DNA of 64,000 bases from Nitrospirota bacterium (GCA_963790205.1 CAWBNQ010000011.1:1-64000); one strand, 5' to 3'. Shown: positions 18,635-53,238, numbered from the stretch's first letter. The notes: generated by a model from the sequence alone, not told the origin. Numbers and translations: made by a program.

Positions 18635-19369
18635 ATGGCAGCTGGTACAAAAAAGATCGCACTCGTTATCGGCGGCAGCAGGGGGATAGGGCGCGCCATT
18701 GCCGTGCGCCTGGCACGTTCCGGTTTTCATATCTGGCTCACCTATAAAGGGAACCATGAAGCGGCTGGAAACGTGAAAGCTGCAATAGAATCCCTCGGCA
18801 GCACCTGCGAGCTCATCCCTTTCGATGTGTCCAGTTTTGAGGAGACCGAAGCCGCCTTAAGCGGACGCCTGGAAAACGCATCTCCCGAAGTCCTCGTGTA
18901 CAATTCGGGGATCTCCAGGGACAACCTCCTGATGTGGATGACCAAGGACGAGTGGAACTCGGTCCTCTCCACGAACCTTGATGGCTTCTTCAACGTGGCC
19001 CGCGCTGTGGTCTTCGCCATGCTTAAGGCAAAGCGAGGCCGGATCGTTATCGTTTCATCCGCTTCGGGCCAGATCGGCCAGGCCGGCCAGGTCAATTACT
19101 CCGCTTCCAAGGCCGGACTGATCGGAGCGGCCAAAGCACTCGCGCGTGAGGTAGGGAAAAAGAGCATCTACGTCAATGTGGTAGCTCCCGGTTTTATCGA
19201 AACGGAGATGACGAGGGGCATTCCGAAAGAACAGGTCTTGCCGCTGATCCCCTTGAACCGCGTGGGCACGGCGGACGATGTGGCTTCGGTCGTGAATTTT
19301 CTGTGCACCGATGAGCACATGTATATTCACGGCCAGGTAATCGGCATTAACGGCGGGCTGGCAATGTAG
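18635..19369 (+). CDS. fabG: 3-oxoacyl-ACP reductase (FabG / ApeQ-like)
   Basis: GGSRGIG, NYSASKAG (YxxxK), NVVAPGFIETEM, INGGL; start placed at ATG 18635. Confidence 0.92.
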   Translation: MAAGTKKIALVIGGSRGIGRAIAVRLARSGFHIWLTYKGNHEAAGNVKAAIESLGSTCELIPFDVSSFEETEAALSGRLENASPEVLVYNSGISRDNLLMWMTKDEWNSVLSTNLDGFFNVARAVVFAMLKAKRGRIVIVSSASGQIGQAGQVNYSASKAGLIGAAKALAREVGKKSIYVNVVAPGFIETEMTRGIPKEQVLPLIPLNRVGTADDVASVVNFLCTDEHMYIHGQVIGINGGLAM

Positions 19370-19519
19370 CTTGTTGTGCTTCTGTAACTGTTCATGTCAG
19401 TTTGCAGCTGCCCGGCTTCGACGCACGGCGCGCCATGGTGCGCTGCTCGTGAGCCGCCTGACCTGATGAGTTGTTACGTTCTTCTAAAAAAATTGTTTAT
19501 ACAAGCAAGCGGTCATTGA

Positions 19520-21010
19520 ATGAAAAAGTATGACGATATCGTGGTGGGGAGCGGCATCAGCGGGCTGACGATGTCGCTGCTGCTCGCCATGAACGGACAT
19601 AAGGTGCTGCTGATCGAGAAAGGTCCGCGCATCGGCGGCTCCCTGTCGCGGTTCTCCAGGCGCGGCATCGCGTTCGATACGGGGTTCCATTTTACGGGCG
19701 GGCTGCACGACGGCGGGATTCTGGCCGACATCCTCTCGTTCCTCGGCATCCGCGACGTTATCGAGCCGGTCTATTACTCCGAGGAATTCAAAAACCAGTT
19801 CATCTTCGAATCGGCCGGCCGCCGGCTTGAACACCCGAGCGGGATCGATAACATCAAAAAGCAGTTCAAAGGGTATTTCCCCGGCGATGCAGACGCCATC
19901 GATCGGTATTTTGAGAAGGTCCAATCCGTCTGTCGCCGGACCCCCTCGCTCAATATTCATGAGAACGTTATCGCATCACCGGGCCTGGACGAAGATTACA
20001 TCAGTTTAGATGCCGTTTTGAAGGGCCTGACATCGAATGGGCTCCTTCGGGGGCTGTTGTCCGCCTATGCTATGTGCTACGGCGTGAAGCCGTCGGAAAT
20101 CTCCTTTGCCAACCACAGCAGGATGGCCCTCAGTTTTTATGAATCCTTTGCCTGTGTCAAACAGGGCGGGGACGCCTTTGTGAAGGCCTTTGAGGAGAAG
20201 TTCAAGGAGCATGAGGTCGAGGTACGCTGCGGGACCTTTATTTCGGAGCTGGCGGACATCAGCGATCACAAGGTGGGGCGGTTCGTTTTGAACACGGGTG
20301 ATGAAGTGGCGGCTGACGCCTGCGTGATGACCATCCATCCCCGGGAGATGCTGAAGCTCCTTCCCGCAAAACAATTCAGCAGGGCCTTTATGAGCCGGGC
20401 TGAGTCCTTCGAACCTTCAGTGGGTTTTTTCACCGTCTTCGGTCTGCTCAAACCGGGCGCGAACGACCCCTATCCGGATTCGGGCGTCACCTCCCTCTTC
20501 CCGAATGAGGATGTGAACCTGCTGCTTGATCCCGCGTACCGGGGAGAGCCCGCCCTGGTCATCATCAAGTCGCCGGAGCAGAACGACGAAGGACGGGGGG
20601 TCTGTATCCTTGAGCCTTCCTTTGCCGAGCACGTTTCCGCCTGGACCGCATCCCGCAGGGGGCAAAGGCCCGCAGAATATCGTGAATACAAGAACCGGAA
20701 GGTCGAGGCGATCAAAGACCATGTGTATAAGGTGCTCCCCGCATACCGGGAGAGCCTCGAGCTTGTGGATGCGGGGTCCATGTTGACCTTTAAGGATTAT
20801 CTGAACAGCCCGGATGGAAGCGCCTATGGCGTGAAGCAGAAAATGGGGCAGTTCAATATCATCGGCAAGCTCCGCCTGCATAATCTTTACGTCGCGGGCC
20901 AGAGCGCGCTTTTACCGGGGATCATCGGCGCTATGATGTCGTCGCTCATCGTCGGCAGGCAGATGCTTGGAAAAGAGCAATACGGCAGGCTCCTGGCAGG
21001 GACGGCATGA
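19520..21010 (+). CDS. FAD-dependent oxidoreductase, phytoene desaturase / retinol saturase-like
   Basis: VVGSGISG, FSRRGIAFDTGFHF, LTFKDY..SPDGSAYG, NLYVAGQS..PGIIG. Confidence 0.85.
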   Translation: MKKYDDIVVGSGISGLTMSLLLAMNGHKVLLIEKGPRIGGSLSRFSRRGIAFDTGFHFTGGLHDGGILADILSFLGIRDVIEPVYYSEEFKNQFIFESAGRRLEHPSGIDNIKKQFKGYFPGDADAIDRYFEKVQSVCRRTPSLNIHENVIASPGLDEDYISLDAVLKGLTSNGLLRGLLSAYAMCYGVKPSEISFANHSRMALSFYESFACVKQGGDAFVKAFEEKFKEHEVEVRCGTFISELADISDHKVGRFVLNTGDEVAADACVMTIHPREMLKLLPAKQFSRAFMSRAESFEPSVGFFTVFGLLKPGANDPYPDSGVTSLFPNEDVNLLLDPAYRGEPALVIIKSPEQNDEGRGVCILEPSFAEHVSAWTASRRGQRPAEYREYKNRKVEAIKDHVYKVLPAYRESLELVDAGSMLTFKDYLNSPDGSAYGVKQKMGQFNIIGKLRLHNLYVAGQSALLPGIIGAMMSSLIVGRQMLGKEQYGRLLAGTA

Positions 21011-22233
21011 CCTTGAAGCGGGTTGTGATAACCGGGATCGGCGTTGTTTCTCCTTTCGGGAACGGCGTCCCCGAACTCATGAACGGGATCGCGGAAGGCA
21101 GGAGCGGCGTGCGGCGGATGGAAGGGTGGGAAGAGTACGTTGGCCTGCGCAGTCTCGTCGGAGCGCCCGTTGAAATGCGGGATGAAAAACGCATCCCGCG
21201 CCAGAAGCGGCGTTCCATGGGGCGGATGAGCATCTTTGCCGCGCAGGCGGCTGATGAAGCGCTGGCCGACTCCGGCATCGACCTCGCGAAGGAAGATCTC
21301 TGGAGAATCGGCTGCGTCATCGGTTCGACCATGGGCAGCGCCAAAAGCATCAACGACGCCTTCGAGCTCATGCTGCCGAACAAGGACCTGAGCCTGCTGA
21401 ACTCGACCATGTTTTTTCAATGCATGTCGCACACCGCGGCGGTGAACGTGGCGCAGTATCTGGGGCTCAACGGCTCGATCATGGCGCCGGCCGCCGCCTG
21501 CGCTTCGGCGCTCCACGCCCTCGGCACGGGCTATGATCTGATCAGGCTCGGGAGGCAGGACGTGCTGCTGTGCGGAGGCGCGGAGGAATTGCATCCGACC
21601 GTGACCGGGTCTTTTGATATTCTGTACGCCACGTCGTCAAAATACAACGACCGGCCGCGGTCGACGCCGCGGCCGTTTGACAAGGACCGCGACGGCCTGG
21701 TGTGCGGCGAGGGGAGCGGTCTTCTGGTCCTTGAGGACCGCGAGCGCGCGGTCAAGCGGAATGCCCGTATGTACGCCGAGGTGACGGGGTTCAGCACCAC
21801 GGCGAACGGCCAGCACGTGAGCCAGTCGAACAAGGAATCGATGGTCGTCTGTATGCGGCAGGCGCTTCGGGATGCCGGGGCGCAGGCGGGCGGAATTGAT
21901 TATATAAATGCCCATGCAACGGCCACGATCCAGGGAGACCAGGAAGAGGCCGAGGCGATACGCGAGGTCTTCGGCGAAACGGTCCCGGTGAGCAGCCTGA
22001 AGGGGTACATCGGTCACACGCTCGGAGCTTCGGGCGCCATAGAACTGGCGGCTTCCCTCAAGATGATGGAACAGGACGTCATCTATCCGACGTTGAATCT
22101 TGAAAACGTGAGCCCTGAATGCGGTGGCATTCGCCACGTGATGCGGCCGCTGAAAAAACAAATGACAACGATACTCAAGAACGGTTTTGCCTTCGGCGGC
22201 ATCAATGCCGCGCTGGTGTGTAAAAAAATATAA
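21007..22233 (+). CDS. Beta-ketoacyl-ACP synthase KS1 (FabB/F, ApeR-like)
   Basis: Cys-His-His triad: AACAS, NAHATAT, KGYIGHTLGASG; FAFGG. Confidence 0.95.
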   Translation: MTLKRVVITGIGVVSPFGNGVPELMNGIAEGRSGVRRMEGWEEYVGLRSLVGAPVEMRDEKRIPRQKRRSMGRMSIFAAQAADEALADSGIDLAKEDLWRIGCVIGSTMGSAKSINDAFELMLPNKDLSLLNSTMFFQCMSHTAAVNVAQYLGLNGSIMAPAAACASALHALGTGYDLIRLGRQDVLLCGGAEELHPTVTGSFDILYATSSKYNDRPRSTPRPFDKDRDGLVCGEGSGLLVLEDRERAVKRNARMYAEVTGFSTTANGQHVSQSNKESMVVCMRQALRDAGAQAGGIDYINAHATATIQGDQEEAEAIREVFGETVPVSSLKGYIGHTLGASGAIELAASLKMMEQDVIYPTLNLENVSPECGGIRHVMRPLKKQMTTILKNGFAFGGINAALVCKKI

Positions 22234-22239
22234 GCACTA

Positions 22240-22350
22240 AAATACAAACACCAAATGACCAATAAACTCCAAGCACGAAATACGGAATTCAAGACGTTTT
22301 GATTTTGCGGTTTGGGAATTGGATATTATTTGTGATTTGGTATTTGAAAT
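22240..22350. repeat. Inverted heptamer arrays (AAATACC / TTTGGTA-like)
   Basis: AAATACAAACACCAAATGACCAATAAACTCCAAGCACGAAATACGG ... TTTGGGAATTGGATATTATTTGTGATTTGGTATTTGAAAT. Confidence 0.7.
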
Positions 22351-22367: not shown

Positions 22368-22634
22368 ATGACCGAGCAGGAGATTATCGATAAAACGAAC
22401 AAGGTGTTCGAAGAGTCCTTTGAGATCGAAAAAGAGAAGCTGACGCCCCAGGCGCAAATCTTCACCGATCTCGGGCTGGACAGCCTTGATATCGTGGATC
22501 TGGTCGTAGCGCTCCAGGGCGCCTTCGGCGTCAAGATCAGGAACGAGGAGCGGGTCAGGGACATCAGGACACTGCAGGACATCTATCAGTTCATTTCCTC
22601 CCTGAAGAACGAGGAAGGCAAGAAGAGCTCATAG
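22368..22634 (+). CDS. Acyl carrier protein ACP1
   Basis: DLGLDSLDIVDL; acidic, 88 aa. Confidence 0.95.
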   Translation: MTEQEIIDKTNKVFEESFEIEKEKLTPQAQIFTDLGLDSLDIVDLVVALQGAFGVKIRNEERVRDIRTLQDIYQFISSLKNEEGKKSS

Positions 22635-22639: not shown

Positions 22640-23389
22640 GTGTGTCAGGTGAAACTGTTCTTTCTGAATCTCTATTTTTACACGTTCTTTTTCCTGCTGT
22701 CCGCGATCGGGATCCCGATACTCACGCTTGGCGTGGCGACTTCGAGGCTCTTCCTGTCGCACCGGCAGACCATGAAGCGCTTCCGCCGTGCCATCAGCTG
22801 GTACGGCAGGATCATCACGGCGATCCCCTATCCCTTCATCAAGCTGCAGTACGAGGACTGCGGATCAAAGGACACCGGTGAGCCGTACATCTTTGTCTGC
22901 AATCATCGCGCAGCATCGGACGCATTCCTCATGTGCGTGCTGCCCCATGAGGTCGTCCAGATCGTGAACGTCTGGCCGTTCAGAATCCCGGTCCTAGGCA
23001 TCTATGCGAAGTTCTCAGGATACCTGAACATCAGGATGATGTCGCCTGAACAGTTCACGGAGAAAGCGAAGGGGCTTTTGTCAGAGGGCGTCAATATCAT
23101 CTTTTTCCCCGAGGGGACGCGGTCGGCCAGCAGGACCATGGGCAGCTTCCACGGAGCGGCATTCAGGCTTGCGCTTGAATCAAAGGCTTCGATCGTTCCG
23201 CTTTGCATCTCGGGGAGTGAAAATATTCCGCCCAAGGGGTCGCTGCTCCTGCGGCCCGGCACGATTCGCGTACGCAGGTTGTCCGCCATCACCTGGGAAG
23301 AATACAAGGATCTGAACGCCTTTGCGTTCAAAAACCGGGTACGGCATATCATCGATAACGAGCTGTCCGTCATGGAGAGCGGTGTATGA
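22640..23389 (+). CDS. PlsC-like acyltransferase (ApeD-like)
   Basis: CNHRAASD (HxxxxD), FFPEGTRS. Confidence 0.9.
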   Translation: MCQVKLFFLNLYFYTFFFLLSAIGIPILTLGVATSRLFLSHRQTMKRFRRAISWYGRIITAIPYPFIKLQYEDCGSKDTGEPYIFVCNHRAASDAFLMCVLPHEVVQIVNVWPFRIPVLGIYAKFSGYLNIRMMSPEQFTEKAKGLLSEGVNIIFFPEGTRSASRTMGSFHGAAFRLALESKASIVPLCISGSENIPPKGSLLLRPGTIRVRRLSAITWEEYKDLNAFAFKNRVRHIIDNELSVMESGV

Positions 23390-24696
23390 ACAACGGTAAA
23401 TTCGACGGGGACGGGAACCTGGAGTTCTCCAGTCCGGAGGAGATCGGGCAGGCGCAGGAAGCGCTGCTCCAGGAGCACGTGCGCTATCTTGCCTCGCAGT
23501 CGCCCTATTACCGCGAGCTTTTTAAGGCCCGGGGGATCGAGCCGGCAGAGATCACGATGGCCACGCTGCATCAGCTCCCGTTCACGGACAAGACGGTTCT
23601 TGGCCAGCAGAACGACGATTTTCTGGCAGTGCCCCGGTCCGAGATCGTGGACATGGTCCTGTCGTCCGGCACGACCGGTAAGCCGACGACGATGATGTAT
23701 ACGGAAAACGATCTTCGGCGCCTGGCCTACAATGAGAAAATATCGTTCATGAGCTGCGGCTTGACGCGGGACGACGTGGTCCTGCTCACGTGCACGATGG
23801 ACCGCTGCTTCATCGCGGGCCTGGCGTATTTTTCCGGCGTGCGGAGCGTGGGCGCCGCGGCGATCAGGAACGGCCTCAACAGTGTTGAAAGCCATCTCGA
23901 AATCATCCAGCGTCTGAGGCCGACGGCGGTCGTGGGCGTGCCGTCGTTCCTGCTGAAGCTTGGGAACTTCATGAAAGCGCAGGACATCGATCCGCACCGG
24001 TCCGGCATCAGAAGGCTGATCTGCATCGGCGAGCCGACCAGGGACCGTAACCTCGCGCTTCTGCAGCTGGGGGAAAGCCTCGAAGCGGTCTGGGGCGCGA
24101 AGACATACTCGACCTATGCGGCCTCGGAAACCATTACCTCGTTCTGCGAGTGCGCCGCCCAGCGGGGCGGACACCTTCACCCCGACCTCGCGGTCATTGA
24201 GATCGTGAACGAACAGGGAGCGGCGCTTCCGCACGGCGAGATCGGCGAGGTCGTCATAACGCCTCTGGCCATTGAGGGCATGCCGCTGCTGCGGTTTAAA
24301 ACCGGAGACATGAGCTTTCTTATCGATGAACCCTGCTCGTGCGGGAGGTATTCTCCCCGCCTCGGTCCCGTCGTCGGGAGAAAGAAGCAGATGATCAAGT
24401 TCCGCGGCACGACGCTGTATCCGAACTCGATCTATGCGGTCCTCGATTCGTTTCCGGAGATCAGCGAATACTACGTTACCGCAACCAGCGATTACGACCT
24501 GTCCGATATTGTGAAGGTCTCTGTCGCGGTGAAGGACGGTTCCTGCAAGGCCGAAACGATCATGGATAAGCTCCAGGCTCATCTGCGGGTGCGTCCCGAA
24601 GTGATCATCACCAGCGAGGAAAGCGTGAAGCAGCAGGTCTACTCCGGGAATTCCCGGAAATTAATCCGTTTTATCGACAAGAGAAAGAGCCTATGA
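23386..24696 (+). CDS. Phenylacetate-CoA ligase-like adenylating enzyme
   Basis: SSGTTGKP, TYAASE, GEVVITPL..EGMPLLRFKTGD, CSCGR, GRKKQMIKFRG. Confidence 0.88.
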   Translation: MNNGKFDGDGNLEFSSPEEIGQAQEALLQEHVRYLASQSPYYRELFKARGIEPAEITMATLHQLPFTDKTVLGQQNDDFLAVPRSEIVDMVLSSGTTGKPTTMMYTENDLRRLAYNEKISFMSCGLTRDDVVLLTCTMDRCFIAGLAYFSGVRSVGAAAIRNGLNSVESHLEIIQRLRPTAVVGVPSFLLKLGNFMKAQDIDPHRSGIRRLICIGEPTRDRNLALLQLGESLEAVWGAKTYSTYAASETITSFCECAAQRGGHLHPDLAVIEIVNEQGAALPHGEIGEVVITPLAIEGMPLLRFKTGDMSFLIDEPCSCGRYSPRLGPVVGRKKQMIKFRGTTLYPNSIYAVLDSFPEISEYYVTATSDYDLSDIVKVSVAVKDGSCKAETIMDKLQAHLRVRPEVIITSEESVKQQVYSGNSRKLIRFIDKRKSL

Positions 24697-26177
24697 ATAC
24701 CTGTCAAAGCCGTATTTACGGCGCGGAGTTCTCCAAGGAGGAGATCGCCGAGGCCGTCCGGGACGGCAAACTGCTGTCCATGGAAATCGAGTTCAACAGC
24801 GTCTGCAATTTTCGCTGCGTCTACTGCTACGCGGCCGAAAACGGCGGCCGCCGGAATGAACTGACTCCCGAAGAGTTCTGGGATGTGATAACCCAGGCGA
24901 AAGAGCTGGGAGCGCGAAAGATGATCGTCCTCGGCGGCGAACCGATGCTCTATCCCCCGATCCTCGAGATGATCCGGTACATCAGAGACCTCGACATGGA
25001 TGTCGAACTCTTCACGAACGGTACGAACATCACGCGCGAGATGGCCCGGACGCTGTATGACCTCGGCGTGCGCGTAGTTCTCAAAATGAACACCTTCGAG
25101 GAAAAGATCCAGGACATGCTTTCGGGCAGGAAAGGCGCCTACGCCCAGATCCACGAGGCGTTCAACAACCTGAAACAGGCCGGCTATCCGTCGGCGGACC
25201 GTTTCATGGGCATCAGCACCGTTGTCTGCCAGCAGAATATTGACGAGCTTCCGAAGATGTGGGAGTGGCTGAGGGACCAGCACATCGCTCCTTATTTCGA
25301 GATGATAACCCCGCAGGGAGGCGCCAAAGAGCACAATATGCTCGAAGTCGATTCCCGGCAGGTGGAGGAATTGTTCTGCCGGATATCCCGGATCGATCGG
25401 ACCAAGTACGGCCACCAGTGGGACCCCAAACCGCCGCTCGTAGGAGGGGAGTGCCTTCGCCACCAGTTCTCCTGCGCCGTGAACTCCGTAGGAGAGGTAC
25501 AGCCCTGCGTCGGGGTGACGATCCCGATCGGCAACGTGCGCAAGCAGCGGCTCAAGGACATCCTCAAGGACAGCGAGGTGGTCCAGGATCTCAAGAGCTA
25601 TAAGGAGATGATCAAGGGGCCCTGCAGCGAATGTGACCGGTTAAGCGCGTGTTACGGATGTCGCGGTGCGGCATACCAGATGACCGGCGACTATCTCGCC
25701 TCGGACCCCCTGTGCTGGAAAAATCTCGACCGGCGCGACGATATCATGTTCCTGCCCGTGGACGCGGCCCAGCTCGTTCCTCACAAGCCGCCCATGCTCC
25801 TGATCGATCGTCTCCTCGAGGTCAAGGAGCGGGCATCCCTGTCAGAGATGACGGTGCGGGAGGACATGGTGTTCGTGGGAGAGGACGGGAAGCTTGATGA
25901 TGCCGCCTATGCCGAGGTCCTCTCCCAGGCCATCGCCGCACAGGAAGGGTTCCGAAAGCTCGGAAGCCGTGACCCTCAGCAAGAAGGTTTTTTGCTCGGC
26001 ATCAAGAACCTCGAGATCCTCGGCAGCGCCCGCATCGGCGATACCCTGCGCATATCAGTGTTTAAGGCCGCGAAGTTCGGAGATTTCGGCATTATCCGGG
26101 GAGAGGTCAGAAACGGTGACGCCCGGATCGCCCGCGGTGAGGTGAAGGTTTGGCAGAGCGACGGAAAGGCGAAATGA
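24693..26177 (+). CDS. Radical SAM/SPASM enzyme fused to a C-terminal hotdog dehydratase (ApeP-like)
   Basis: CNFRCVYC, GGEP, SPASM cysteines (CSECDRLSACYGCRG..DPLC), then LVPHKPPMLLIDRL..EVLSQAIAA..GFLLGIK. Confidence 0.88.
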   Translation: MNTCQSRIYGAEFSKEEIAEAVRDGKLLSMEIEFNSVCNFRCVYCYAAENGGRRNELTPEEFWDVITQAKELGARKMIVLGGEPMLYPPILEMIRYIRDLDMDVELFTNGTNITREMARTLYDLGVRVVLKMNTFEEKIQDMLSGRKGAYAQIHEAFNNLKQAGYPSADRFMGISTVVCQQNIDELPKMWEWLRDQHIAPYFEMITPQGGAKEHNMLEVDSRQVEELFCRISRIDRTKYGHQWDPKPPLVGGECLRHQFSCAVNSVGEVQPCVGVTIPIGNVRKQRLKDILKDSEVVQDLKSYKEMIKGPCSECDRLSACYGCRGAAYQMTGDYLASDPLCWKNLDRRDDIMFLPVDAAQLVPHKPPMLLIDRLLEVKERASLSEMTVREDMVFVGEDGKLDDAAYAEVLSQAIAAQEGFRKLGSRDPQQEGFLLGIKNLEILGSARIGDTLRISVFKAAKFGDFGIIRGEVRNGDARIARGEVKVWQSDGKAK

Positions 26178-26863
26178 TGATGAGGAAGATAAGAACGAGG
26201 GCACTCCTTTCTTCGGCCCTGGGCATCCTCCTGTTGTTGGCCGGAGCGGTTTTCGCGGAGGATATCAACAAGGGCGGAGCTCCGGGACCAGCGGACCTGC
26301 CGGCATTCCTGAACAGCCTCGGTAAAAAGGTCTCGGCTTTCAAGACCCTCAAAACGGATTTTACCCAGGAAAAAGAGATGGCGATGTTCAAGGAGAAGCT
26401 CGTGCTCACGGGCAGGATCTATCTCCAGAAACCCAACAAGGTCGCCTGGCATGTGGACAAGCCGCTCCGCTATTCCGTCCTGATCACCGACAAGTTTATA
26501 CGTCAATGGGACGAGGACACGAACCAGGTGCAGGAAATATCGTTAACAAAGAACCCTCTCTTTCAGAACGTGATCAAGCAGCTGACGGTCTGGTTTTCCG
26601 GAGAGTACGGTTCGCTCCTCGACACCAATGATGTGCGGTTGGTGCAACAGAACCCTCTCGTGCTGGAGTTTTCGCCCCGCGCCAATAACGACTCCCGGAA
26701 GGTCATTAAGACCATTACGATCACGTTCCGGGAAGATGAGACTTATTTGCAGCAGATACGGATCCGGGAACTGAGCGGCGATGTCACGACGATTCATTTC
26801 ACGAACACAATTTTGAACGCCCCTCTCGACAGCAGCAGCTTTGAGGTAAAAGGGCATGTTTGA
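26174..26863 (+). CDS. LolA-like lipid carrier (ApeL-like)
   Basis: Signal peptide; FTQEKEM..LTGRIYLQKPNKVAWHV; GDVTTIHF. Confidence 0.85.
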   Translation: MMMRKIRTRALLSSALGILLLLAGAVFAEDINKGGAPGPADLPAFLNSLGKKVSAFKTLKTDFTQEKEMAMFKEKLVLTGRIYLQKPNKVAWHVDKPLRYSVLITDKFIRQWDEDTNQVQEISLTKNPLFQNVIKQLTVWFSGEYGSLLDTNDVRLVQQNPLVLEFSPRANNDSRKVIKTITITFREDETYLQQIRIRELSGDVTTIHFTNTILNAPLDSSSFEVKGHV

Positions 26864-42668: not shown

Positions 42669-43895
42669 ATGCCAGGAACTAAAAAATATCTGCTGATGCC
42701 CGGCAACAACTCGCTGTCGCACGTGGTCAAATGCCTGGCAGTGGGAGATACGCTGACAACGCGGGGCCATGAGGTGCGCGTGGCCGTGAGCAGGAAACAC
42801 TCTCGGTTCCTCCAGAAACTTTCGATCGAGCACTTTGTCCTGCCTGATATTCAGGAAGTCGATGAGTCCGGATTTCCCTCGGTGGAATGGTTCAGGCAGC
42901 CCCGGCTCATCACCGACTGCATCAACGAAGAAGTACGCCTGCTCAGGTACTACCAGCCGGACCGCGTCCTCGGCGTATTCAGGTTCACGCTCAAATCCTC
43001 GGCCCGGATCGCCGGCGTGCCCTATGATTCCCTGGTCAGCGGGTGTCTGATACCCGATTCCCGGGAGGTCATGGGTTTTGCCGACGAAGAACCGGGCAGA
43101 GAGGTCCAGCGCGTCATTCTCGACGGCTTTTTCCGGTATGCAGGGGCGCGGCTCGACGCCGCGCTGCGCGCCCTCGGCCTGCCGCAGAGCAATGATGATA
43201 TCCGTCATATGTTAAAAGGCGAGCGCACTTTCCTCTGGGACTTTCCGGAGTTCGCGCCGCTGCCGCAGCGTTCGGACCTCATCCACGTGGGGCCGCTCTC
43301 CTGGAACCGCTGGCCTTACGACAGCGTGGACACCGGCCTCCTCGCCCGGGCGGACCGTCCGCTTGCGGTCATGGCCTTCGGCACCTGCACCATATGCCTG
43401 GCCGCGGTAAGGCGGATCATCACGGTCCTCCTTGGCATGGGGTACCGGGTACTGCTCGCGGCAGGCGGACAGCCCGAGCTTTTATCGGTTCTGCCCAACG
43501 ACCCCCGGGTCATCACCTGTGCTTTCGCACCGCTCCACAAGATTTTTCCCCACGCGGCCCTGCTGGTCACTCATGGAGGCCAGATGACGGTCTTCGAGGC
43601 CCTGCAGAACGGGGTTCCCGTGCTCGTCATGCCGTTCCAGCCCGAGCAGGCCCACAACGGCCTCTGCCTCGAACGTCTGGGCTGCGGCAAACGGCTGGTA
43701 TCGGCCGAACCGTTCCAGGGAAACTCCACGGTTTATATGAACGCCCTTGATCGCATGACCGACGACGAGGTCGGAGCCAGGATCAGCAGTCTGGTGCTTC
43801 ATCCGCATATCAAGAGCCGTCTTTCCGAAACGCGGGACATCATCAGGCGCTATGGCGGCGTGGAAGCGCTTGCCGATTCGCTCGAGGATTTTTAG
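42669..43895 (+). CDS. GT-B glycosyltransferase (GT1/GT28, MGT-like)
   Basis: SLSHVVK, RGHEV, HVGPL, VTHGGQMTVFEALQNGVPVLVMPFQPEQAHN. Confidence 0.88.
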   Translation: MPGTKKYLLMPGNNSLSHVVKCLAVGDTLTTRGHEVRVAVSRKHSRFLQKLSIEHFVLPDIQEVDESGFPSVEWFRQPRLITDCINEEVRLLRYYQPDRVLGVFRFTLKSSARIAGVPYDSLVSGCLIPDSREVMGFADEEPGREVQRVILDGFFRYAGARLDAALRALGLPQSNDDIRHMLKGERTFLWDFPEFAPLPQRSDLIHVGPLSWNRWPYDSVDTGLLARADRPLAVMAFGTCTICLAAVRRIITVLLGMGYRVLLAAGGQPELLSVLPNDPRVITCAFAPLHKIFPHAALLVTHGGQMTVFEALQNGVPVLVMPFQPEQAHNGLCLERLGCGKRLVSAEPFQGNSTVYMNALDRMTDDEVGARISSLVLHPHIKSRLSETRDIIRRYGGVEALADSLEDF

Positions 43896-45698: not shown

Positions 45699-45727
45699 TT
45701 GAATTAATGCAAACCATCAGATATAAT
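45699..45727 (+). promoter_or_regulatory. Internal sigma70-type promoter
   Basis: TTGAAT-17 bp-TATAAT, 100 bp upstream of ACP3. Confidence 0.7.
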
Positions 45728-45827: not shown

Positions 45828-46076
45828 ATGACGACGACGGTGCAGGAGATTGAACACAAATTGACCGAGCTTGTGGCTTCCCTTACGAACCGCGACTTGG
45901 CGACCATCGGTCCCGACATGCCGTTCCAGGAACTGGGCATCGATTCGCTCGGTTTTGTCGAGATCCTGGTGTTCATTGAAAAGACTTTCAAGCTTCAGCT
46001 GATAGCGTCCGACCTGACGAAAAAGGACTTCGAGACCATCCATACGCTGGCGTCGTTCATCAGCAGATCGCGATAG
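45828..46076 (+). CDS. Acyl/peptidyl carrier protein ACP3
   Basis: ELGIDSLGFVEIL, FETIHTLA. Confidence 0.93.
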   Translation: MTTTVQEIEHKLTELVASLTNRDLATIGPDMPFQELGIDSLGFVEILVFIEKTFKLQLIASDLTKKDFETIHTLASFISRSR

Positions 46077-46088: not shown

Positions 46089-47411
46089 ATGTTACTATCG
46101 AAACGCAAGCGGTATCTCTCGGGTCCTGACTGGGTGATCAATACACTCGATCACCTGATGAAGGCCCGGACCTGCGCCGGGAACATGTCGCAGATCGTGC
46201 TTCTCTTCGATGCTCCTGTTGATGAGCAGGAGGTCCGGACAAGTCTGAACAGGTTCCTCAAACAGTTCCCCGTGCTGGAAGGGAGCGTGACCCGGGACTT
46301 CAAGCTTACGCCCTACTGGGCCATTCCCGTAAAAAGCGGGCGTGATGTCGCGCTTGTTGTTCATCACGTGGACGACGCGTCGTCCTGGCAGGCGCTTAAG
46401 CCCTACCTGGAAAAGAGCGTCAACAAGCCGTTCCGGGACAAAAAGGACCATCTCGCGTTCCAGCTTTTTACCAGCCGGGACCGGGGCGCTCTTTCCATGA
46501 CCTTTGATCACCGCATCTTCGACGCGCGCGGCGCGGAGCTGTTGTTGAACCTCTTTCAGCAGCACCTGAACGGAGTCGATCCGGCGCCCGGGGACATTAC
46601 GTTCGCTTCGTCAATGGCCCTCACGCAATGGTCGAAAAAGTTCCTGGCAGGCAGGAACGTGAACCGCCGGATCATCGGGCTTTCGAAGTCAACGCCGGCA
46701 ACCCTGCCGATCCCCGACGGCCTCGGCAGGCGCCACCGGTATCATCGTCTGTCGTTCAGCGAACAGGAAACAGCTTCCCTGTATGGGCGCGCCCACCAGG
46801 AAGCAGGATACCTGATGGAATCGCCGTACCTGCTTGCCGTCATCATACAGAGCATGCACGAGCTGTTCAGGGTCCGGAACCTGGAAGGCAACAGCTACCT
46901 CATCCCCGTTACCCTGGACCTGCGCCCCAACAAGGACCCGCTGCAGGAGACGTTCTTTAACTACGTGTCCTACCTTTTTTATCAGGTCCCGGCGGGCGAG
47001 GTCGCCGATCGCAAGGGGCTCATTGCCCTGTTGAAGCAGCAGATGTACGACCAGGTGAAGTCGGGCTTTCCCAAGGACCTTGCGGAAGCAAGCCTGCTGA
47101 CCCGCATCGCGCCTCTGCCCGCGCTGGGGAAGCTGCTGCATCTTCCGATGAAAGGGAAGATGGCCACGTTCGCGTTCTCCCATCTCGGGAAGAGCTCGTA
47201 CCAGCACCCGCTGTTCATGAGCAGGAAGGTCATGGAACTTTTCCATATGCCGCGCGTTCCCGTGCCGCCGGGGCTCGGGTTCTTCAGCAATTATTACAAC
47301 AGCAGGCTCAGCCTGGTCATCTCCTATCTTGAGGGGCTGCTCTCGGATGAGGATGTGAAGGGCCTTGAAAAGGGGATTCGTGAACGGTTCGGCGCAGGGA
47401 GCGTCGCATGA
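46089..47411 (+). CDS. Stand-alone condensation-like / CAT-fold acyltransferase
   Basis: FPVLEG, TFDHRIFDARG (HxxxD), IPVTLDLR..FFNY; 440 aa two-lobe size. Confidence 0.72.
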   Translation: MLLSKRKRYLSGPDWVINTLDHLMKARTCAGNMSQIVLLFDAPVDEQEVRTSLNRFLKQFPVLEGSVTRDFKLTPYWAIPVKSGRDVALVVHHVDDASSWQALKPYLEKSVNKPFRDKKDHLAFQLFTSRDRGALSMTFDHRIFDARGAELLLNLFQQHLNGVDPAPGDITFASSMALTQWSKKFLAGRNVNRRIIGLSKSTPATLPIPDGLGRRHRYHRLSFSEQETASLYGRAHQEAGYLMESPYLLAVIIQSMHELFRVRNLEGNSYLIPVTLDLRPNKDPLQETFFNYVSYLFYQVPAGEVADRKGLIALLKQQMYDQVKSGFPKDLAEASLLTRIAPLPALGKLLHLPMKGKMATFAFSHLGKSSYQHPLFMSRKVMELFHMPRVPVPPGLGFFSNYYNSRLSLVISYLEGLLSDEDVKGLEKGIRERFGAGSVA

Positions 47412-48789: not shown

Positions 48790-50226
48790 GTGAGAATATT
48801 ACTCGTTAAACCGAACCCGCAGCTTCTGGTAGCAAAGCGCCTGCAGGAGGGGTTTCTGCATCTTGAGCCGCTTGAACTTGAGATGGTCGCTGCCGGCGCG
48901 CCGTCCGAGGACGAGGTCGTGATCCTGGACCTGAGTTTCGAGAAAGACCCGGTCCTGGGCTTTCAGGAGAAGGTCCGCGCCTTTGCTCCGCAGATCGTCG
49001 GCTTCACCGGCTACAGCAGCCAGTCCGGTCTGGTCAAGAGCCTTGCCGCGCTCGTCAAACAGCACGACCCCGCGATCGTGACCATTGTCGGCGGCACGCA
49101 CGCGACGATCATTCCCGCGGATTACACGGTGAACTGCGACAGCCTCGACCTCATCGTGCGCGGCGAAGGCGGCACCGTGTTCGGCGAGATCCTCAGGCGC
49201 TTCAAGAACAAGGAACCGCTGGCGTTCGGCGATGCCGTGCTCTCGCCCAAGGCCGCTGATTTCGCGGAGAAGGCGGCCGGACCGCCGCCGGAGTTCCCTC
49301 CCGTGGACCAGATCCCCCGGGCGCGCCGGGAGCTCGTTGACCGGTCCCGGTATTTCTGCGTCTGGACCTCGAGCACGGAAAAGAAGCTCGACACGATCTT
49401 CCCGCGCACGGCAAGCATGCGCACGTCAACGGGCTGCGCCTACACATGTTCCTTCTGCGTGGTGCACTACCTGATGCGCGGCAAGTATCTCCAGCGCCGG
49501 CCCGAGGACGTGGTGGACGAGATCGCCAAGGTCCCCGAGGACCATATTTACTTTGTCGATGACGAGACCTTTCTGAACAAGGACCGTTTGACCAAGATCG
49601 CGAATCTGCTGATCGAACGCGGGATCAAGAAGAAGTACATCAGCTGGGCCCGCGCCGACACGATCGTGAAATATCCCGAGCTCTTCAGGCTCTGGAAGCA
49701 GGTGGGCCTGAGCGTGGTCTACGTGGGGCTCGAAGCCATGGTCGGGTCACGGCTCGATAAATACAAAAAACGGACAAGCGTCGATACGAACCGCAAGGCC
49801 GTGGAGTTCCTGAAAGAGATCGGGATCACGCTCCATGCGAGCTTCATGGTGGACCCCGACTTCTCGGTCCAGGACTTCAAAGACCTTGAAAAAGAGATCA
49901 TGAAGGTCTGCCCGGCCGAGGTGACCTTCACGGTCTTCTCGCCCTCGCCGGGGACCGATCTCTGGAAACAGCATAAGGACGACTACATCTGCGATCCGTA
50001 CCTGAACTACGACTGCATGCACACGATCCTTCCCACGACGCTGAACATGAACCTGTTCTATGCCCACTTCGCGAAACTGTCGCGGGTCGCCCTTCAGGCG
50101 AACCCGCTCAGGGTGAACAAGGTCAGGGTCCCGTTCCGGGAGACGCTTAAGATCATCTACCTCGGAACGCGGTATATCTTCGCCATGCGGAACATCTACA
50201 AGGACTATTTGCCGAAGAAAACATGA
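48790..50226 (+). CDS. B12-binding radical SAM enzyme
   Basis: EPLELE, VGGTHAT, GEG, GCAYTCSFC, FVDD, SPSPGT. Confidence 0.9.
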   Translation: MRILLVKPNPQLLVAKRLQEGFLHLEPLELEMVAAGAPSEDEVVILDLSFEKDPVLGFQEKVRAFAPQIVGFTGYSSQSGLVKSLAALVKQHDPAIVTIVGGTHATIIPADYTVNCDSLDLIVRGEGGTVFGEILRRFKNKEPLAFGDAVLSPKAADFAEKAAGPPPEFPPVDQIPRARRELVDRSRYFCVWTSSTEKKLDTIFPRTASMRTSTGCAYTCSFCVVHYLMRGKYLQRRPEDVVDEIAKVPEDHIYFVDDETFLNKDRLTKIANLLIERGIKKKYISWARADTIVKYPELFRLWKQVGLSVVYVGLEAMVGSRLDKYKKRTSVDTNRKAVEFLKEIGITLHASFMVDPDFSVQDFKDLEKEIMKVCPAEVTFTVFSPSPGTDLWKQHKDDYICDPYLNYDCMHTILPTTLNMNLFYAHFAKLSRVALQANPLRVNKVRVPFRETLKIIYLGTRYIFAMRNIYKDYLPKKT

Positions 50227-51650
50227 ATATCGTCTCTGTCATTAAACAGGCAACAGAAAATCATTTAGGGAAGACCGCGGTGATCGAGGGCGCCGACCGC
50301 GTGACCTATGGCCGGCTGCTTACGGCCGCTGAAGAGCTGGCCGATGTCCTGCGCAAGAAGGGTGTCGCGCGGCTCCACCGCGTGGGCCTTCTCTGCGACG
50401 ACAGCATCGATTACGTTATCGTAAGCCTGGCGATCCTGTCCCTCTCCGCCGTCGTTGTTCCCGTGTCCCCGGAGCAGACCACGGAGGAAGCCGAGAAGGT
50501 CATTGACATCATCGATATCGACTTTCTCATCGCCGAGCCGCGGCTGTGGCAGAACGGATACGGCGACGCGCTGCAGTCGAGCGGTCTTGTCAGGAAAGAA
50601 TTTACCATCGTGAAGAGGGTGGTCCGGGAAAAGCCGAAGGCGGAGTATTGCAGGACCAATCCCGCGTTCATCCGGTTCAGCTCCGGCACGACGGGCGCGA
50701 GCAAGGGCGTCGTGCTGTCCCACGAGGCGATCATCGAACGGACCGATGCGGCCGACCGGGGCCTGCAGATAACAGCCCAGGATACGGTGCTCTGGGTCCT
50801 GTCCATGAGCTATCACTTCGTGGTCACGATCCTCCTGTTCCTCCGGCGCGGCGCGGCCATCGTGCTCTGCGGCACGCGGTTCCCGGACACGCTCATCGAA
50901 GGCATCCGGACGCACGCCGGGACGTTCATCTATGCGTCGCCGTTCCATTACAGCCTGCTGTCGCGCGCCGATGCCCTTGGTCGTGATGATCTGAAACACA
51001 TCCGCTGCGCGGTCTCGACGGCAATGAAGCTTCCGGAAGTCGTGGCCGAGGAGTTTTCCGCAAAGTTCGGCATTGAGCTGACCGAGGCGTACGGCATTAT
51101 CGAGGTCGGCCTGCCTTTTGTACGGCTCACCGGCGGCAGAGACAAAAGGGGAACGGTAGGAAAACCCCTGCCCGACTTCGAAGTAAAACTCGACCGGAAA
51201 GACGCCGAGGGCGTGGGGGAGATCCGCATCAAGGGCAAGGGGATGCTCGATGCCTATTATTCTCCCTGGCAGTCGAGAGAGGACAGCCTGTCCGACGGCT
51301 GGTTCAAGACCGGCGATCTCGGCAGAATAGACAAGGACGGTTTCCTGACCATTGTGGGCAGGGAAAAGGACGTTATTAATTTCGTCGGCATGAAGATCTT
51401 TGCCCAGGAAGTGGAGGCGGTGCTCAATCAGCACCCGCAGGTGAAAGAATCCCTCGTATACGGCGCAGCGCATCCCCAGTACGGACAGTTGCCCATGGCA
51501 AAGCTAGTTCTGCGCCAGGAGAACGGCGTGGACGTAAGCGAACTCAGGAAATTCTGCTATCAGCGGCTCGCCCAGTACAAGGTGCCGAAGGATTTCGAGT
51601 TCGTGGACCAGTTGCCCAAAACCGCGAGCGGAAAGATCAAAAGACAGTAA
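50223..51650 (+). CDS. AMP-dependent acyl-CoA / acyl-ACP ligase
   Basis: FSSGTTGASKG, AYGIIE, WFKTGDLG, GREKD, LPKTASGKI. Confidence 0.93.
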   Translation: MNIVSVIKQATENHLGKTAVIEGADRVTYGRLLTAAEELADVLRKKGVARLHRVGLLCDDSIDYVIVSLAILSLSAVVVPVSPEQTTEEAEKVIDIIDIDFLIAEPRLWQNGYGDALQSSGLVRKEFTIVKRVVREKPKAEYCRTNPAFIRFSSGTTGASKGVVLSHEAIIERTDAADRGLQITAQDTVLWVLSMSYHFVVTILLFLRRGAAIVLCGTRFPDTLIEGIRTHAGTFIYASPFHYSLLSRADALGRDDLKHIRCAVSTAMKLPEVVAEEFSAKFGIELTEAYGIIEVGLPFVRLTGGRDKRGTVGKPLPDFEVKLDRKDAEGVGEIRIKGKGMLDAYYSPWQSREDSLSDGWFKTGDLGRIDKDGFLTIVGREKDVINFVGMKIFAQEVEAVLNQHPQVKESLVYGAAHPQYGQLPMAKLVLRQENGVDVSELRKFCYQRLAQYKVPKDFEFVDQLPKTASGKIKRQ

Positions 51651-51662
51651 CCGAAGAAATTT

Positions 51663-51760
51663 TCTCGCAAAGCTCGCCAAGTTCGCTAAGAGAAGCAAGA
51701 CCTTTGGTTTAAAGCCAGGATTTAAAGATTTTCTTTGCGCCCTTTGCGTGCTCCGCGAGA
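51663..51760. repeat. Intergenic imperfect palindrome
   Basis: TCTCGCAAAGCTCGCCAAGTTCGCTAAG ... CTTTGCGCCCTTTGCGTGCTCCGCGAGA. Confidence 0.7.
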
Positions 51761-51804
51761 GACGCCTTTGTTTTTTGCTTCATCGGTCTTAAGGATATTA
51801 AATA

Positions 51805-53238
51805 ATGAAAATTCTTTTGATTAACCCCTTCGGCTCGAACTGGGTCGAGGGCATGGAAGACAAGACCGAGACCGCCATACGCATGGCCCCCATGGGCATC
51901 CTGTCGATCGCGGCATATCTGGAACAACAGGGCATTGACGTGGAGCTTTACGACTGCCGCGGGCCGGTCACCCTCGTCGGGACCGCCGACGCTCTCGCCC
52001 GGGTCGCCGCTTTCAAGCCGGACATGGTGGGATTCACCGCGGTAACATCGAGCTTCTTGAACGCCTATCAACAGGCAGAGGACATAAAAAAGACAACGCC
52101 GCATATCAAGACCGTCGTGGGCGGCGTGCATGTGTCCGCCTTGCGCGGAAAGATCCTGGAACGATTCCCGGCTATCGATTACGTGGTGACCGGCGAAGGC
52201 GAGAAGGCCATGGCCGAACTCGCCGCAGGCGCACCGCCGAAAGCCATTCAGGGCCTGGTGTACCGTGAAGGCGCTGAAATAAAGGACAACGGCCTCAGGA
52301 CCGAGCTCTGCGAACTCGACAGCCTTCCTTTTCCGGCTTACCACAAGCTTGAGGGTTTCCCCAGGCGCTTCGAAGCCGCCTTGTTCAACTATCCCAAGGC
52401 GCCGACGGCAACGATCATTTCGAGCCGCGGCTGCCCATACCAGTGCTCCTACTGCGACCGGTCGGTGTACCGCCGGAGCTTCCGGTTCAATTCAGCGGAA
52501 TATCTGTACGAGCATATGGCATTCCTGAAAAAGAACTTCGGCATCAGACACGTGTTCTTCTACGACGACCTGTTCACGTTCAACCGCGAGCGGGTCGAAA
52601 AATTCTGCGGTCTTTTGCGCGACAAACCGCTGGGCATGACCTTTAATTGCGCCGTGCGCGTGGGGCATATCGATGACGCGCTGCTCAAGATGCTTAAAAC
52701 ATCGGGCTGCTGGATGGTAAGCCTCGGCATCGAGTCGGGAGCACCGGAGATCCTGGCGCGCCACAAGACCAAAGTTGATTTCAACGAGATGAAGACCACG
52801 GTCCGGCGCATCCAGAGGGCGGGCATCAGGGCCAAGGGCCTGTTCATGATGGGTCTTCCGGGCGAGACCGAAAAGACCATAAAAATGACAACGGACTTCA
52901 TCAACGGCCTGGAGCTTGACGATATGAACATGACCAAGTTCACGCCGTTCCCGGGGTCGCCTATCTATCAGACTATCCAAGAGGAAGGCGCGTTCACGGA
53001 AAAGTGGGAGCTGATGAACTGTCTCAATTTCGTTTACGTGCCCCGGGGGATCGAATCGAAAGAACGGCTTGACGACCTCTATAAGCAGTTTCTCAAACAG
53101 TTTTACACCGGCAGAAACTGGATCAGGAAGTTCGGCCCGCTCATGTTCAAATCTCCGCACAGCACACTGCGGATGATCAAGGGCATGCCGACCTTCCTGA
53201 AGATCAGGAAGGATTTTGAACCGAAGGGGAACGGTTAA
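51805..53238 (+). CDS. B12-binding radical SAM enzyme (class B methyltransferase-like)
   Basis: PMGILSIA, VGGVHVS, GEGE, SRGCPYQCSYC, YDDLFT, GIESG, GLPGET, TPFPGS. Confidence 0.92.
   Translation: MKILLINPFGSNWVEGMEDKTETAIRMAPMGILSIAAYLEQQGIDVELYDCRGPVTLVGTADALARVAAFKPDMVGFTAVTSSFLNAYQQAEDIKKTTPHIKTVVGGVHVSALRGKILERFPAIDYVVTGEGEKAMAELAAGAPPKAIQGLVYREGAEIKDNGLRTELCELDSLPFPAYHKLEGFPRRFEAALFNYPKAPTATIISSRGCPYQCSYCDRSVYRRSFRFNSAEYLYEHMAFLKKNFGIRHVFFYDDLFTFNRERVEKFCGLLRDKPLGMTFNCAVRVGHIDDALLKMLKTSGCWMVSLGIESGAPEILARHKTKVDFNEMKTTVRRIQRAGIRAKGLFMMGLPGETEKTIKMTTDFINGLELDDMNMTKFTPFPGSPIYQTIQEEGAFTEKWELMNCLNFVYVPRGIESKERLDDLYKQFLKQFYTGRNWIRKFGPLMFKSPHSTLRMIKGMPTFLKIRKDFEPKGNG

Follow-up and report, generated by a model that had tools for sequence, protein, structure and literature searches.

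A radical SAM/SPASM domain in the place of an ammonia-lyase in an aryl-polyene-type lipid cluster of a Nitrospirota bacterium

What lipid is built by an aryl-polyene-type gene cluster that carries seven radical S-adenosylmethionine (SAM) enzymes, and from which starter? The question is raised by a run of 31 genes at positions 18635..53238 of a 64,000-nucleotide stretch from a Nitrospirota bacterium (GCA_963790205.1 CAWBNQ010000011.1:1-64000), the whole of which is called here 'the window'. An earlier reading of the sequence alone (the 'sequence-only reading') had seen an aryl polyene (ape) core in this run, and had proposed an undescribed outer-membrane (glyco)lipid whose polyene chains are methylated, cyclised or cross-linked by the radical enzymes. 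The main result presented here concerns one of the seven, g07 (genes are numbered as in Table 1): among related clusters its radical SAM/SPASM domain alternates with an aromatic ammonia-lyase.

In flexirubin biosynthesis of Chitinophaga, FlxY is a 4-coumarate-coenzyme A (CoA) ligase that is supplied by the tyrosine ammonia-lyase FlxA (PMC3992019). The window has a FlxY-like ligase, g06, on which PaaK models reach at most 191 bits and which has no second match in the host genome at E 1e-15. In that genome, which is 98% complete, no match was found to an aromatic ammonia-lyase, to UbiC or to an FkbO/Hyg5-type chorismatase. The gene order in the window is ligase, radical/SPASM-ApeP fusion, LolA, MMPL, DUF3261, dehydratase. 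One relative (G042) has the order lyase, ApeP, LolA, MMPL, DUF3261, dehydratase, and another (G249) ligase, lyase, ApeP, LolA, MMPL, so that in both the lyase holds the place of g07.

The distribution of lyase and radical domain was counted in two samples. The first consisted of 37 genomes with strong matches to TIGR04072, the family of g16; six weaker genomes from the set of the host's family and phylum, and eight from the set of the phylum of a Pelobacteraceae-labelled genome (G061), were left out. We take the latter phylum to be Desulfobacterota. A FlxY-like ligase was present in 26 of the 37 genomes: 19 had the g07 domain without a lyase reaching the cut-off, six a lyase and no g07 domain, and one neither; 15 of the 19 radical-domain carriers belong to one family. 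None of the 11 genomes devoid of this ligase had the g07 domain (0/11), and a single one (1/11) had a lyase; the ligase in the cluster of that genome is of another kind. For the second sample, 401 genomes were drawn evenly from the phylum of G061. Here the ligase was found in 13 genomes, eight with the radical domain only, four with a lyase only, one with neither and none with both, the background frequency of lyases among the 401 genomes being 12.6%. The radical domain lay directly behind the ligase in all eight radical-only genomes.

Other carriers of the radical domain had a second, unrelated ligase, which is ApeH-like and has 4-coumarate ligase as its best named model. This second family, present in 12 of 251 genomes, gave five cases with the radical domain only, seven with a lyase only, and none with both or neither (Fisher P = 0.0013, before allowing for kinship); the lyases that partner it sit among the cluster genes. 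Five clusters without FlxY-like ligase, lyase or radical domain proved to lack the second ligase as well. Of the 19 carriers of the radical domain in the 401-genome sample, 16 have it as an unfused protein (open frames of 344-434 amino acids (aa)); the domain is thus independent of the dehydratase to which it is joined in the window.

We conclude that lyase and radical domain fill one slot in these clusters, which does not imply that they yield the same product. This complementarity, together with the lack of a lyase, UbiC or chorismatase match in the host, makes g07 the likely supplier of the aryl starter; judging from homology and gene distribution, it probably serves starter supply rather than chain modification. 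As far as our searches reach, the complementarity is new within the open-access literature searched.

Which reaction g07 might catalyse is harder to say. A profile built from most members of its family scored the members at 428-597 bits, against at most 158 bits for the other radical SAM proteins of the host. A tentative suggestion is that g07 may be, specifically, a radical deaminase of Tyr or Phe; DesII offers a precedent for deamination by a radical enzyme. The AhbD-like sequence neighbourhood of the domain would be matched about as well by oxidative decarboxylation, or by a shortening of the side chain that yields a different aryl acid. The specificity motifs of the lyases differ among relatives (HL, SH/GH and FH), and they were not used for predicting the substrate because of this variation and because the motif mispredicts FlxA (PMC3992019).

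Several observations weigh against a starter role of g07 and against an aryl polyene as product. When the domain was compared with named radical SAM/SPASM models (AhbD, NirJ, PqqE, MftC and others), none was over cut-off and the nearest were heme-pathway enzymes, with AhbD best (151 bits, cut-off 500), and no lyase. Its predicted fold (predicted local distance difference test (pLDDT) 90) has generic SPASM neighbours, the nearest being peptide maturases, and again no lyase. The table for the FlxY-like ligases amounts to about one change, since the lyase-partnered ligases form one clade (SH-aLRT support, an approximate likelihood-ratio measure, of 84 in a quick, unfinished tree), which sits among three radical-partnered lineages; for the second ligase family the number of changes is roughly two to three (FastTree, with open forks). 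Individual genomes also depart from the rule: G337 has both lyase and radical domain, on different contigs; G417 has both, the nearby lyase lying two genes from HutC in a histidine-utilisation context; G176 has the ligase and neither partner; and G317 has only a weak partial ligase match. Many of the sampled genomes are incomplete. In several unfused carriers the radical gene follows ketosynthase 1 (KS1) and PlsC, with the ligase elsewhere, an arrangement that fits a role in the second chain too. Ligase g06 scores below the FlxY cut-off (480.8 versus 520 bits), so that the match does not fix its substrate. Finally, no enoyl reductase is recognisable in the cluster, but the two flavoproteins could reduce a polyene. 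One BLAST hit to the g07 domain (35%), from the lyase-bearing genome G286, was not counted, as it had no score to the family profile at E 1e-10.

With these points set against the complementarity, we lean slightly towards a pathway, every step of which is drawn from homology or gene distribution, where a complete type II polyketide synthase assembly, lipid-attachment and export line would make an outer-membrane aryl-polyene-type glycolipid and g07 would supply the starter in place of an ammonia-lyase. The radical domain of g07 would convert an aromatic amino acid, or a close metabolite, to an aryl acid, in the simplest version by radical loss of ammonia (through a benzylic radical) from Tyr or Phe, giving coumarate or cinnamate. 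The aryl acid would be activated by g06 and extended, without enoyl reduction, to an aryl polyene by KS3 and its chain-length-factor-like (CLF) partner CLF3 with acyl carrier protein 2 (ACP2), FabG and the dehydratase pair formed by g11 and the C-terminus of g07. KS1 and ACP1 might make a second conjugated chain, and KS2/CLF2 extend or edit one of the chains. The B12-type enzymes g15, g16 and g31 could tailor chains or ring, most simply by C-methylation, the cluster having no ApeB methyltransferase. The PlsC, glycosyltransferase (GT) family GT2 and LpxL-type enzymes may then join the chains to a glycerophosphate-amino-sugar core, as in the aryl polyene lipids (APELs) of Xenorhabdus, and a third module (g30, ACP3, the flavin adenine dinucleotide (FAD) enzyme, g29 and g27) may load, modify and transfer one more acyl group. 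Genes g24 and g25 would be an optional sugar decoration and g20 an optional insert, while MMPL, LolA and lipoprotein would carry the product to the outer membrane. The more specific statement, that g07 belongs to an unnamed radical SAM/SPASM family replacing the Tyr/Phe ammonia-lyase, and that the pathway of these anaerobes leads to a three-chain, radically tailored aryl-polyene glycolipid of the outer membrane, is put forward as possible rather than probable. From the proposal of a (glyco)lipid with radically modified chains, the lipid line is thus retained and methylation is plausible; cyclisation and cross-linking found no direct support.

Within the same aryl-polyene-type lipid line, the domain of g07 could instead act on the ACP-bound growing chain, through the dehydratase half to which it is fused, with a starter coming from elsewhere in metabolism. 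The fusion is kept in 15 of 15 same-family relatives and in G061, G062, G064 and G065 (open frames of 473-518 aa), and the radical gene often follows KS1-ACP1-PlsC. We nevertheless consider this unlikely: besides the unfused state of most carriers, it accounts neither for the lack of the domain in ligase-free clusters nor for the exclusion between lyase and radical domain in two ligase families, and the fusion is expected from adjacency alone if the gene occupies the lyase slot directly upstream of ApeP. A rather less probable option is that the product is an unusual lipid, largely reduced or non-aromatic: double bonds would be reduced or moved by the CrtI-like and PF12831 flavoproteins, and the chains would receive methyl groups from the radical enzymes. 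Neither flavoprotein has an ape counterpart, and the FlxY-like ligase is absent from 11 of 37 clusters, the second type being found in none of the five of these that were tested (0/5). Not every member of the family has an aryl head, then, since in several clusters no starter ligase was recognised. Against this option, the window cluster combines the ligase with an ApeR-type KS, a KS/CLF pair and the ApeI/ApeP pair; in ape systems these give conjugated chains.

A third option, which we regard as improbable, is that the B12-type radical SAM enzymes cyclise or cross-link the polyene chains into ladderane-like or other ring-containing lipids. It may draw on g16, which falls in a family named after the island of ladderane candidates, on KS2, whose best NCBIfam model is cispentacin AmcF (219 bits, below its cut-off of 325), and on the structure 9S5H, the best PDB match of KS2 and KS3. 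We take AmcF to be a ring-forming KS-like enzyme and 9S5H to be an anammox KS/CLF pair, a label that was not confirmed on checking. The margin of 9S5H over housekeeping FabF is small (166.6 versus 152.4 and 201.5 versus 199.4 bits), and the export genes point to an APEL-like product of the outer membrane. The link of the island with ladderanes made in 2009 was called weak by reviewers (PMC2649909), and no new fatty acids appeared when ladderane candidates were expressed in E. coli, in the experiments reported (PMC4790861). Current ladderane work deals with a different, anammox-only cluster of six genes (PMC10139942; bioRxiv 2026.05.19.726425; PMC13459092). This Cluster I, kuste3603-3608 (amxACP, amxFabZ, amxFabF2/FabFmut, PDH and one B12 radical SAM gene), shares gene types with the window cluster, but as described there has no counterpart of its ligase, acyl- and glycosyltransferases and export genes; it is said to be exclusive to ladderane producers and is itself without experimental proof (PMC10139942). 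The nearest relatives of the window cluster are labelled Nitrospirota and the layout differs from Cluster I. Since the favoured cluster is a different one, and since Desulfotalea psychrophila shares the island without ladderanes having been detected in it (PMC2649909), the ladderane link suggested by the sequence-only reading stands as regards membership of the island family and is weak as regards the product; a ladderane reading is thereby reduced to a minor rival.

The seven radical SAM proteins can be sorted. Four are B12-binding (g15, g16, g29, g31), two are of the SPASM type (g07, g25) and one is HemN-like (g20). From a rough genome-wide motif count (39 open reading frames (ORFs)), about 0.3 ORFs with a CxxxCxxC motif would be expected per 34.6 kb, against seven here. 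The proteins are mutually divergent (22-32% alike over partial alignments) and hence not recent duplicates. Among 32 loci that span g19-g26, the HemN-like gene occurs in two, the deacetylase g21 in 25, and g24 (GT1) with g25 (hydrolase/radical fusion) in four, always as a pair; this constant pairing with GT1 suggests that g25 works on a sugar. In G024 and G032 the HemN-like ortholog of g20 lies about 11 kb outside the cluster. The PDB matches of g20 are nearly equal (NocN methyltransferase, 96.6 bits; HemN, 93.3 bits). ACP3, the condensation domain, the FAD enzyme, g29 and the adenosine monophosphate (AMP)-forming ligase occur together in seven of 16 fetched clusters and are jointly missing elsewhere, with the exception of one 29% match to g29 and with some fetched clusters ending at contig ends; g31 was also found in the absence of this module. 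The segment 45828-51650 of the window thus appears as a co-inherited five-gene module, and look-alike clusters were seen in Omnitrophota and Planctomycetota.

From the occurrence of the radical SAM genes across the clusters of relatives we conclude that the seven are the full option set of a modular family: g15, g16 and often g31 belong to the core, g07 is linked to the ligase, g29 to the third module, and g20 and g25 are optional. A single set of seven enzymes acting on the polyene chains, as had been supposed, is not what emerges, as g07 tracks starter supply, two genes are optional and one goes with a separate ACP/condensation module. Nor is the cluster unique by its seven radical SAM genes: G014 carries all of them in nearly the same order, the deacetylase alone being absent. 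For B12-type radical SAM enzymes methylation is the default activity. Radical methylation by those of the cluster is plausible, there being no ApeB and the nearest model of g29 being HpnR, far below its cut-off.

The cluster is a member of the 'ladderane-like' lipid island family, on the strength of sequence matches: g16 is over the TIGR04072 cut-off and lies inside a FAS II-like cluster with a PDH-like gene, an aryl-CoA-ligase-like gene, a non-catalytic KS and a membrane transporter. Membership of the island type, first described in 2009 in Kuenenia, Desulfotalea, Geobacter and Pelobacter (Rattray 2009, PMC2649909), had been anticipated for the first three genera, and this is supported; the view of the cluster as singular was not, the family being common and widespread. 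A search with g16 gave 58 loci, 42 with Nitrospirota-type labels and 16 from Geobacterales and kin, Omnitrophota, Elusimicrobia, Deferribacteres and Nitrospinota, which makes Nitrospirota the probable phylum of the host. Within the host's family and phylum, 24 of 61 genomes exceeded the cut-off; within the phylum of G061, 24 of 251 did so (at E 1e-120). The two samples overlap in source and the counts are not independent. Gene order is kept across these loci. Desulfomarina profundi and Desulfovibrio inopinatus also have proteins annotated to this B12 radical SAM family. In the open-access literature no product of the family was found, in agreement with the claim that it is undescribed. We therefore have before us an intact, fully loaded member of a known, uncharacterised family. 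At least seven genomes from G061's phylum have a cluster of a different, compact type (L120-L127, L165-L169), comprising ACP, KS, PlsC, B12 radical SAM, unfused radical SAM/SPASM, ApeH-like ligase, DegV/DAK2 and a KS-containing protein of 720-750 aa.

The features of the locus are collected in Table 1. All 31 genes lie on one strand (+), as the sequence-only reading had it, and have no internal stops. On one side the run is flanked by a divergent gene, which ends at 18289, and on the other by the pyr operon, with pyrR at 53503. Some genes are separated by 150-240 bases, and promoter-like sites are overall at chance level. Pfam and NCBIfam bore out the inventory of FabG, three KS, two KS-like proteins, three ACPs, thioesterase, two adenylating ligases, two glycosyltransferases, deacetylase, two FAD enzymes, LolA, MMPL and DUF3261, and all seven CxxxCxxC proteins match Pfam Radical_SAM over cut-off. 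In alignments the three KS have intact Cys-His-His triads, as had been stated (C164/H303/H336, C133/H267/H301 and C151/H285/H318), and both CLF-like proteins lack the catalytic Cys and the two histidines. Two items call for a remark. Among the three acyltransferase-type genes, the PlsC and LpxL types were recovered; the third, at 46089, has no family match over cut-off and a condensation-domain fold. The two dehydratase domains score below the Pfam cut-offs (ApeI-like, 20.3 versus 28.5 bits; ApeP-like, 18.7 versus 27 bits) yet match E. coli ApeI (E 1e-6) and ApeP (E 1e-8).

Table 1. Features of the cluster and its promoter-like sites (positions in the window)
Feature	Position	Strand	Basis or remark
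Sigma-70-like promoter match, 11/12, upstream of g01	18384..18413	+	consensus match only
g01 ketoreductase, ApeQ/FlxB-like	18635..19369	+	42% to E. coli ApeQ; FlxB model 291.9 bits, cut-off 340
g02 CrtI/phytoene-dehydrogenase-like flavoprotein, putative	19520..21010	+	all named models far below cut-off
g03 KS1, ApeR-type, triad intact	21007..22233	+	42% to E. coli ApeR; best PDB match 7F27 (AbApeR)
g04 ACP1, ApeF-like	22368..22634	+	37% to ApeF; DSL motif
g05 PlsC-type acyltransferase, ApeD-like	22649..23389	+	Pfam; match to E. coli ApeD
g06 FlxY-like aryl-acid CoA ligase, putative starter loading	23386..24696	+	FlxY model 480.8 bits, cut-off 520
g07 radical SAM/SPASM domain (residues 1-350) fused to ApeP-like half-dehydratase	24693..26177	+	Pfam; E. 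coli ApeP match
g08 LolA-like carrier	26174..26863	+	LolA2_flexi 111 bits, cut-off 125
g09 MMPL/RND exporter, ApeM-like	26856..29246	+	Pfam; match to E. coli ApeM
g10 DUF3261 lipoprotein, ApeN-like	29243..29917	+	Pfam; lipobox
g11 ApeI-like dehydratase half	29904..30293	+	GHFP motif; match to E. coli ApeI
g12 thioesterase, ApeK-like	30295..30780	+	Pfam; match to E. coli ApeK
g13 KS2, triad intact, no ape counterpart of its own	30777..31892	+	NCBIfam, alignment
g14 (CLF2) short CLF-like protein, 224 aa, no catalytic triad	31903..32577	+	alignment
g15 B12-binding radical SAM enzyme, family core gene	32579..33847	+	Pfam, relatives' loci
g16 B12-binding radical SAM enzyme, TIGR04072 member	33844..35214	+	623.4 bits, cut-off 360
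g17 GT2 glycosyltransferase + DUF2062, as ApeJ N-terminal half	35201..36400	+	Pfam; ApeJ match
g18 LpxL-type acyltransferase, as ApeJ C-terminal half	36378..37280	+	Pfam; ApeJ match
g19 ACP2, ApeE-like	37315..37593	+	38% to ApeE
g20 HemN-like radical SAM protein, optional	37835..39205	+	Pfam/NCBIfam; GC content 0.51 (lower)
g21 polysaccharide-deacetylase lipoprotein	39207..40253	+	Pfam; true start perhaps further in
g22 KS3, best ApeO counterpart, triad intact	40339..41517	+	34% to E. coli ApeO
g23 (CLF3) CLF-like partner of KS3	41514..42581	+	PF13723 36.1 bits, cut-off 25; E. coli ApeC weak, E 0.05
g24 GT1 glycosyltransferase, optional	42669..43895	+	Pfam
g25 alpha/beta-hydrolase fused to radical SAM/SPASM, optional	43897..45666	+	Pfam; GHSTG motif
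Promoter-like match, 10/12, upstream of third module	45699..45727	+	consensus match only
g26 ACP3	45828..46076	+	Pfam, alignment
g27 stand-alone condensation-domain-fold acyltransferase, H141-xxx-D145	46089..47411	+	predicted fold, pLDDT 86
g28 FAD oxidoreductase PF12831	47408..48616	+	269 bits
g29 B12-binding radical SAM enzyme of third module	48790..50226	+	best model HpnR methylase 227 bits, cut-off 650
g30 AMP-forming acyl ligase of third module	50223..51650	+	small-acid and aryl CoA ligases all ~145-157 bits
g31 B12-binding radical SAM enzyme; goes with core, not third module	51805..53238	+	Pfam/NCBIfam, relatives' loci

The HxxxD motif of g27 is invariant across 45 aligned sequences, and the protein has 374 homologs at E 1e-10, nearly all without names. 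The short CLF2 could form a non-elongating KS pair with KS2. Cispentacin models, besides AmcF on KS2, were met on CLF3 (AmcG) and, as the best model, on ACP3 (AmcB), in both cases below cut-off.

A public DNA run, which is possibly the window's own source and not independent, holds near-identical contigs that bridge ACP2-HemN-like-deacetylase (36986-39432) and CLF3-GT1-hydrolase/radical SAM-ACP3-condensation (42369-47204). As these contigs span their junctions, the optional genes do not result from an assembly join, and an assembly artefact is not supported. There is no sign either of a recent horizontal arrival of the whole cluster, its GC content (0.578) being close to that of the genome (0.551) and orthologs within the host's family being 50-90% identical. 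The plasmid collection held no TIGR04072-like match at E 1e-30, an Rfam search of the window gave no match, and promoter and terminator counts in the window were at chance level (10 versus 7.7 and 7 versus 5.9, respectively).

Further observations concern the surroundings. The spacers 22225-22370, 48616-48790 and 51650-51805 are low-complexity and partly self-similar (for example, TTTGCAAT-type and GCAAAG-type repeats), and differ or are absent in relatives. At 53435-53460, in the pyrR leader, there is a strong hairpin followed by a T-run, as a pyr attenuator would have, with no Rfam match. An eighth radical SAM gene (58658-59563) lies outside the cluster between carA and carB, likewise in G014. 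Upstream, on the - strand (8167-18289), lie a 247-aa protein with no family match, an ABC ATPase, an 887-aa double FtsX/MacB permease, a LolA-like protein and a DUF1302 protein; the first three genes of this block adjoin the cluster in G014 as well, and the block might encode a second system for transporting lipids or lipoproteins. Elsewhere in the host genome (G000), further FabG/KS groups were seen at C1 ~634700-638300, C8 ~4700-7100 and C8 66400-67700, one of them with two tandem KS, and a relative of the B12 radical SAM enzymes at C1:621462. A match to the cobalamin synthase CobS at C3:832837-833554 is in two pieces with two TGA stops inside, by frameshift, assembly error or a broken gene, and bears on the B12 supply for four enzymes of the cluster.

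Aryl polyene clusters are described as probably the commonest biosynthetic gene cluster family of Gram-negative bacteria. For the anaerobe branch to which this cluster belongs no product has been proven since 2009, and the branch has been drawn into the ladderane question. If the starter role of g07 is true, it would mean a new radical SAM reaction and would fix the starter of the pathway; ring-labelled Tyr or Phe would be a handle for finding the lipid in cultured hosts, and one gene class would leave the list of ladderane candidates. Sorting the seven radical enzymes into roles narrows the starter question to two soluble proteins, g06 and g07.

How does the cluster compare with known systems? 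Among the closest are the ape/APEL clusters of E. coli CFT073, Xenorhabdus doucetiae and Acinetobacter baumannii, whose gene roles and core set have been defined (bioRxiv 2020.12.19.423268, Fig. 1); in Xenorhabdus they build and export a glycerophosphate-N-acetylgalactosamine (GalNAc) lipid that bears two chains, an aryl polyene and another conjugated one (bioRxiv 2020.12.19.423268). The KS ApeO and ApeR, the ACPs ApeE and ApeF, ApeQ and ApeM are shared, as is the dehydratase pair ApeI/ApeP, present here as g11 and the C-terminus of g07. Counterparts were found for 14 of the 18 CFT073 genes (21-42% identity), 11 of them at E <= 1e-5 (ApeR, Q, P, O, M, K, J (split), I, F, E and D); ApeC, L and N are weak, L and N being backed by Pfam LolA and DUF3261. 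The best PDB matches of KS1 are two ApeR proteins, with 335.7 bits for 7F27 (AbApeR) versus at most 269 bits for FabB. ApeA, ApeB, ApeG and ApeH have no counterpart in the cluster, and ApeH no match in the host genome. In contrast to ape, ApeJ is split, ApeP is fused to the radical domain, and the window cluster has additional parts, namely one more KS/CLF pair and one more ACP module (the third of each), two flavoproteins and the seven radical SAM enzymes; the 18-gene CFT073 annotation contains no radical SAM gene, as had been said. The assembly and export core read from the sequence thus finds its E. coli matches, with the exception of the starter machinery, which is flexirubin-like (a FlxY-like ligase) and not ApeH.

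With the flexirubin cluster of Chitinophaga pinensis and Flavobacterium johnsoniae (flxA-Y, darAB; PMC3992019), the likeness resides in g01, g06 and g08, whose best NCBIfam models are FlxB, FlxY and LolA2_flexi, all below cut-off, and in several KS, a deacetylase, an acyltransferase, a glycosyltransferase and an exporter. No match was found in the host genome (98% complete) to an FlxA-type lyase (PF00221) or to DarB, nor was there a match to a relative's DarA-like gene. A lyase lies beside the cluster in G043 and G249, and a DarB-like gene in G005. DarB-like ketosynthase fragments (NF005293, NF053539) with a putative DarA-like neighbour, beside clusters of the family, were seen at L059:18508-20000 (G005) and L121:5744-6892 (G441), hinting at flexirubin-type resorcinol esters in some anaerobes.

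The Kuenenia stuttgartiensis island kuste3335-3352 (PMC4790861 Table 2, PMC2649909), compared by gene list, shares a glycosyltransferase, phytoene-dehydrogenase-like and FabZ-type genes, two ACPs, FabG, two radical SAM genes, a phenylacetyl-CoA-ligase-like gene, a KS with a non-catalytic KS, a membrane transporter and a deacetylase; syntenic loci exist in Desulfotalea psychrophila, Geobacter and Pelobacter (PMC2649909). As listed there, it has two radical SAM genes and two SAM methylases, where the window cluster has seven radical SAM genes and the extra ACP/condensation module. Aryl polyenes from an obligate anaerobe are also represented by the flavoaffinins of Clostridium thermocellum, which are small cellulose-binding lactones and not membrane glycolipids (bioRxiv 2025.02.08.637243). 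Measured against these systems, the cluster is, by its sequence matches, neither a classical ape cluster (no ApeH) nor a flexirubin cluster (no FlxA, no DarB), but resembles an aryl-polyene-lipid pathway. The kind of cluster was already known; what is new, within the open-access papers searched, is the complementarity of lyase and radical SAM domain.

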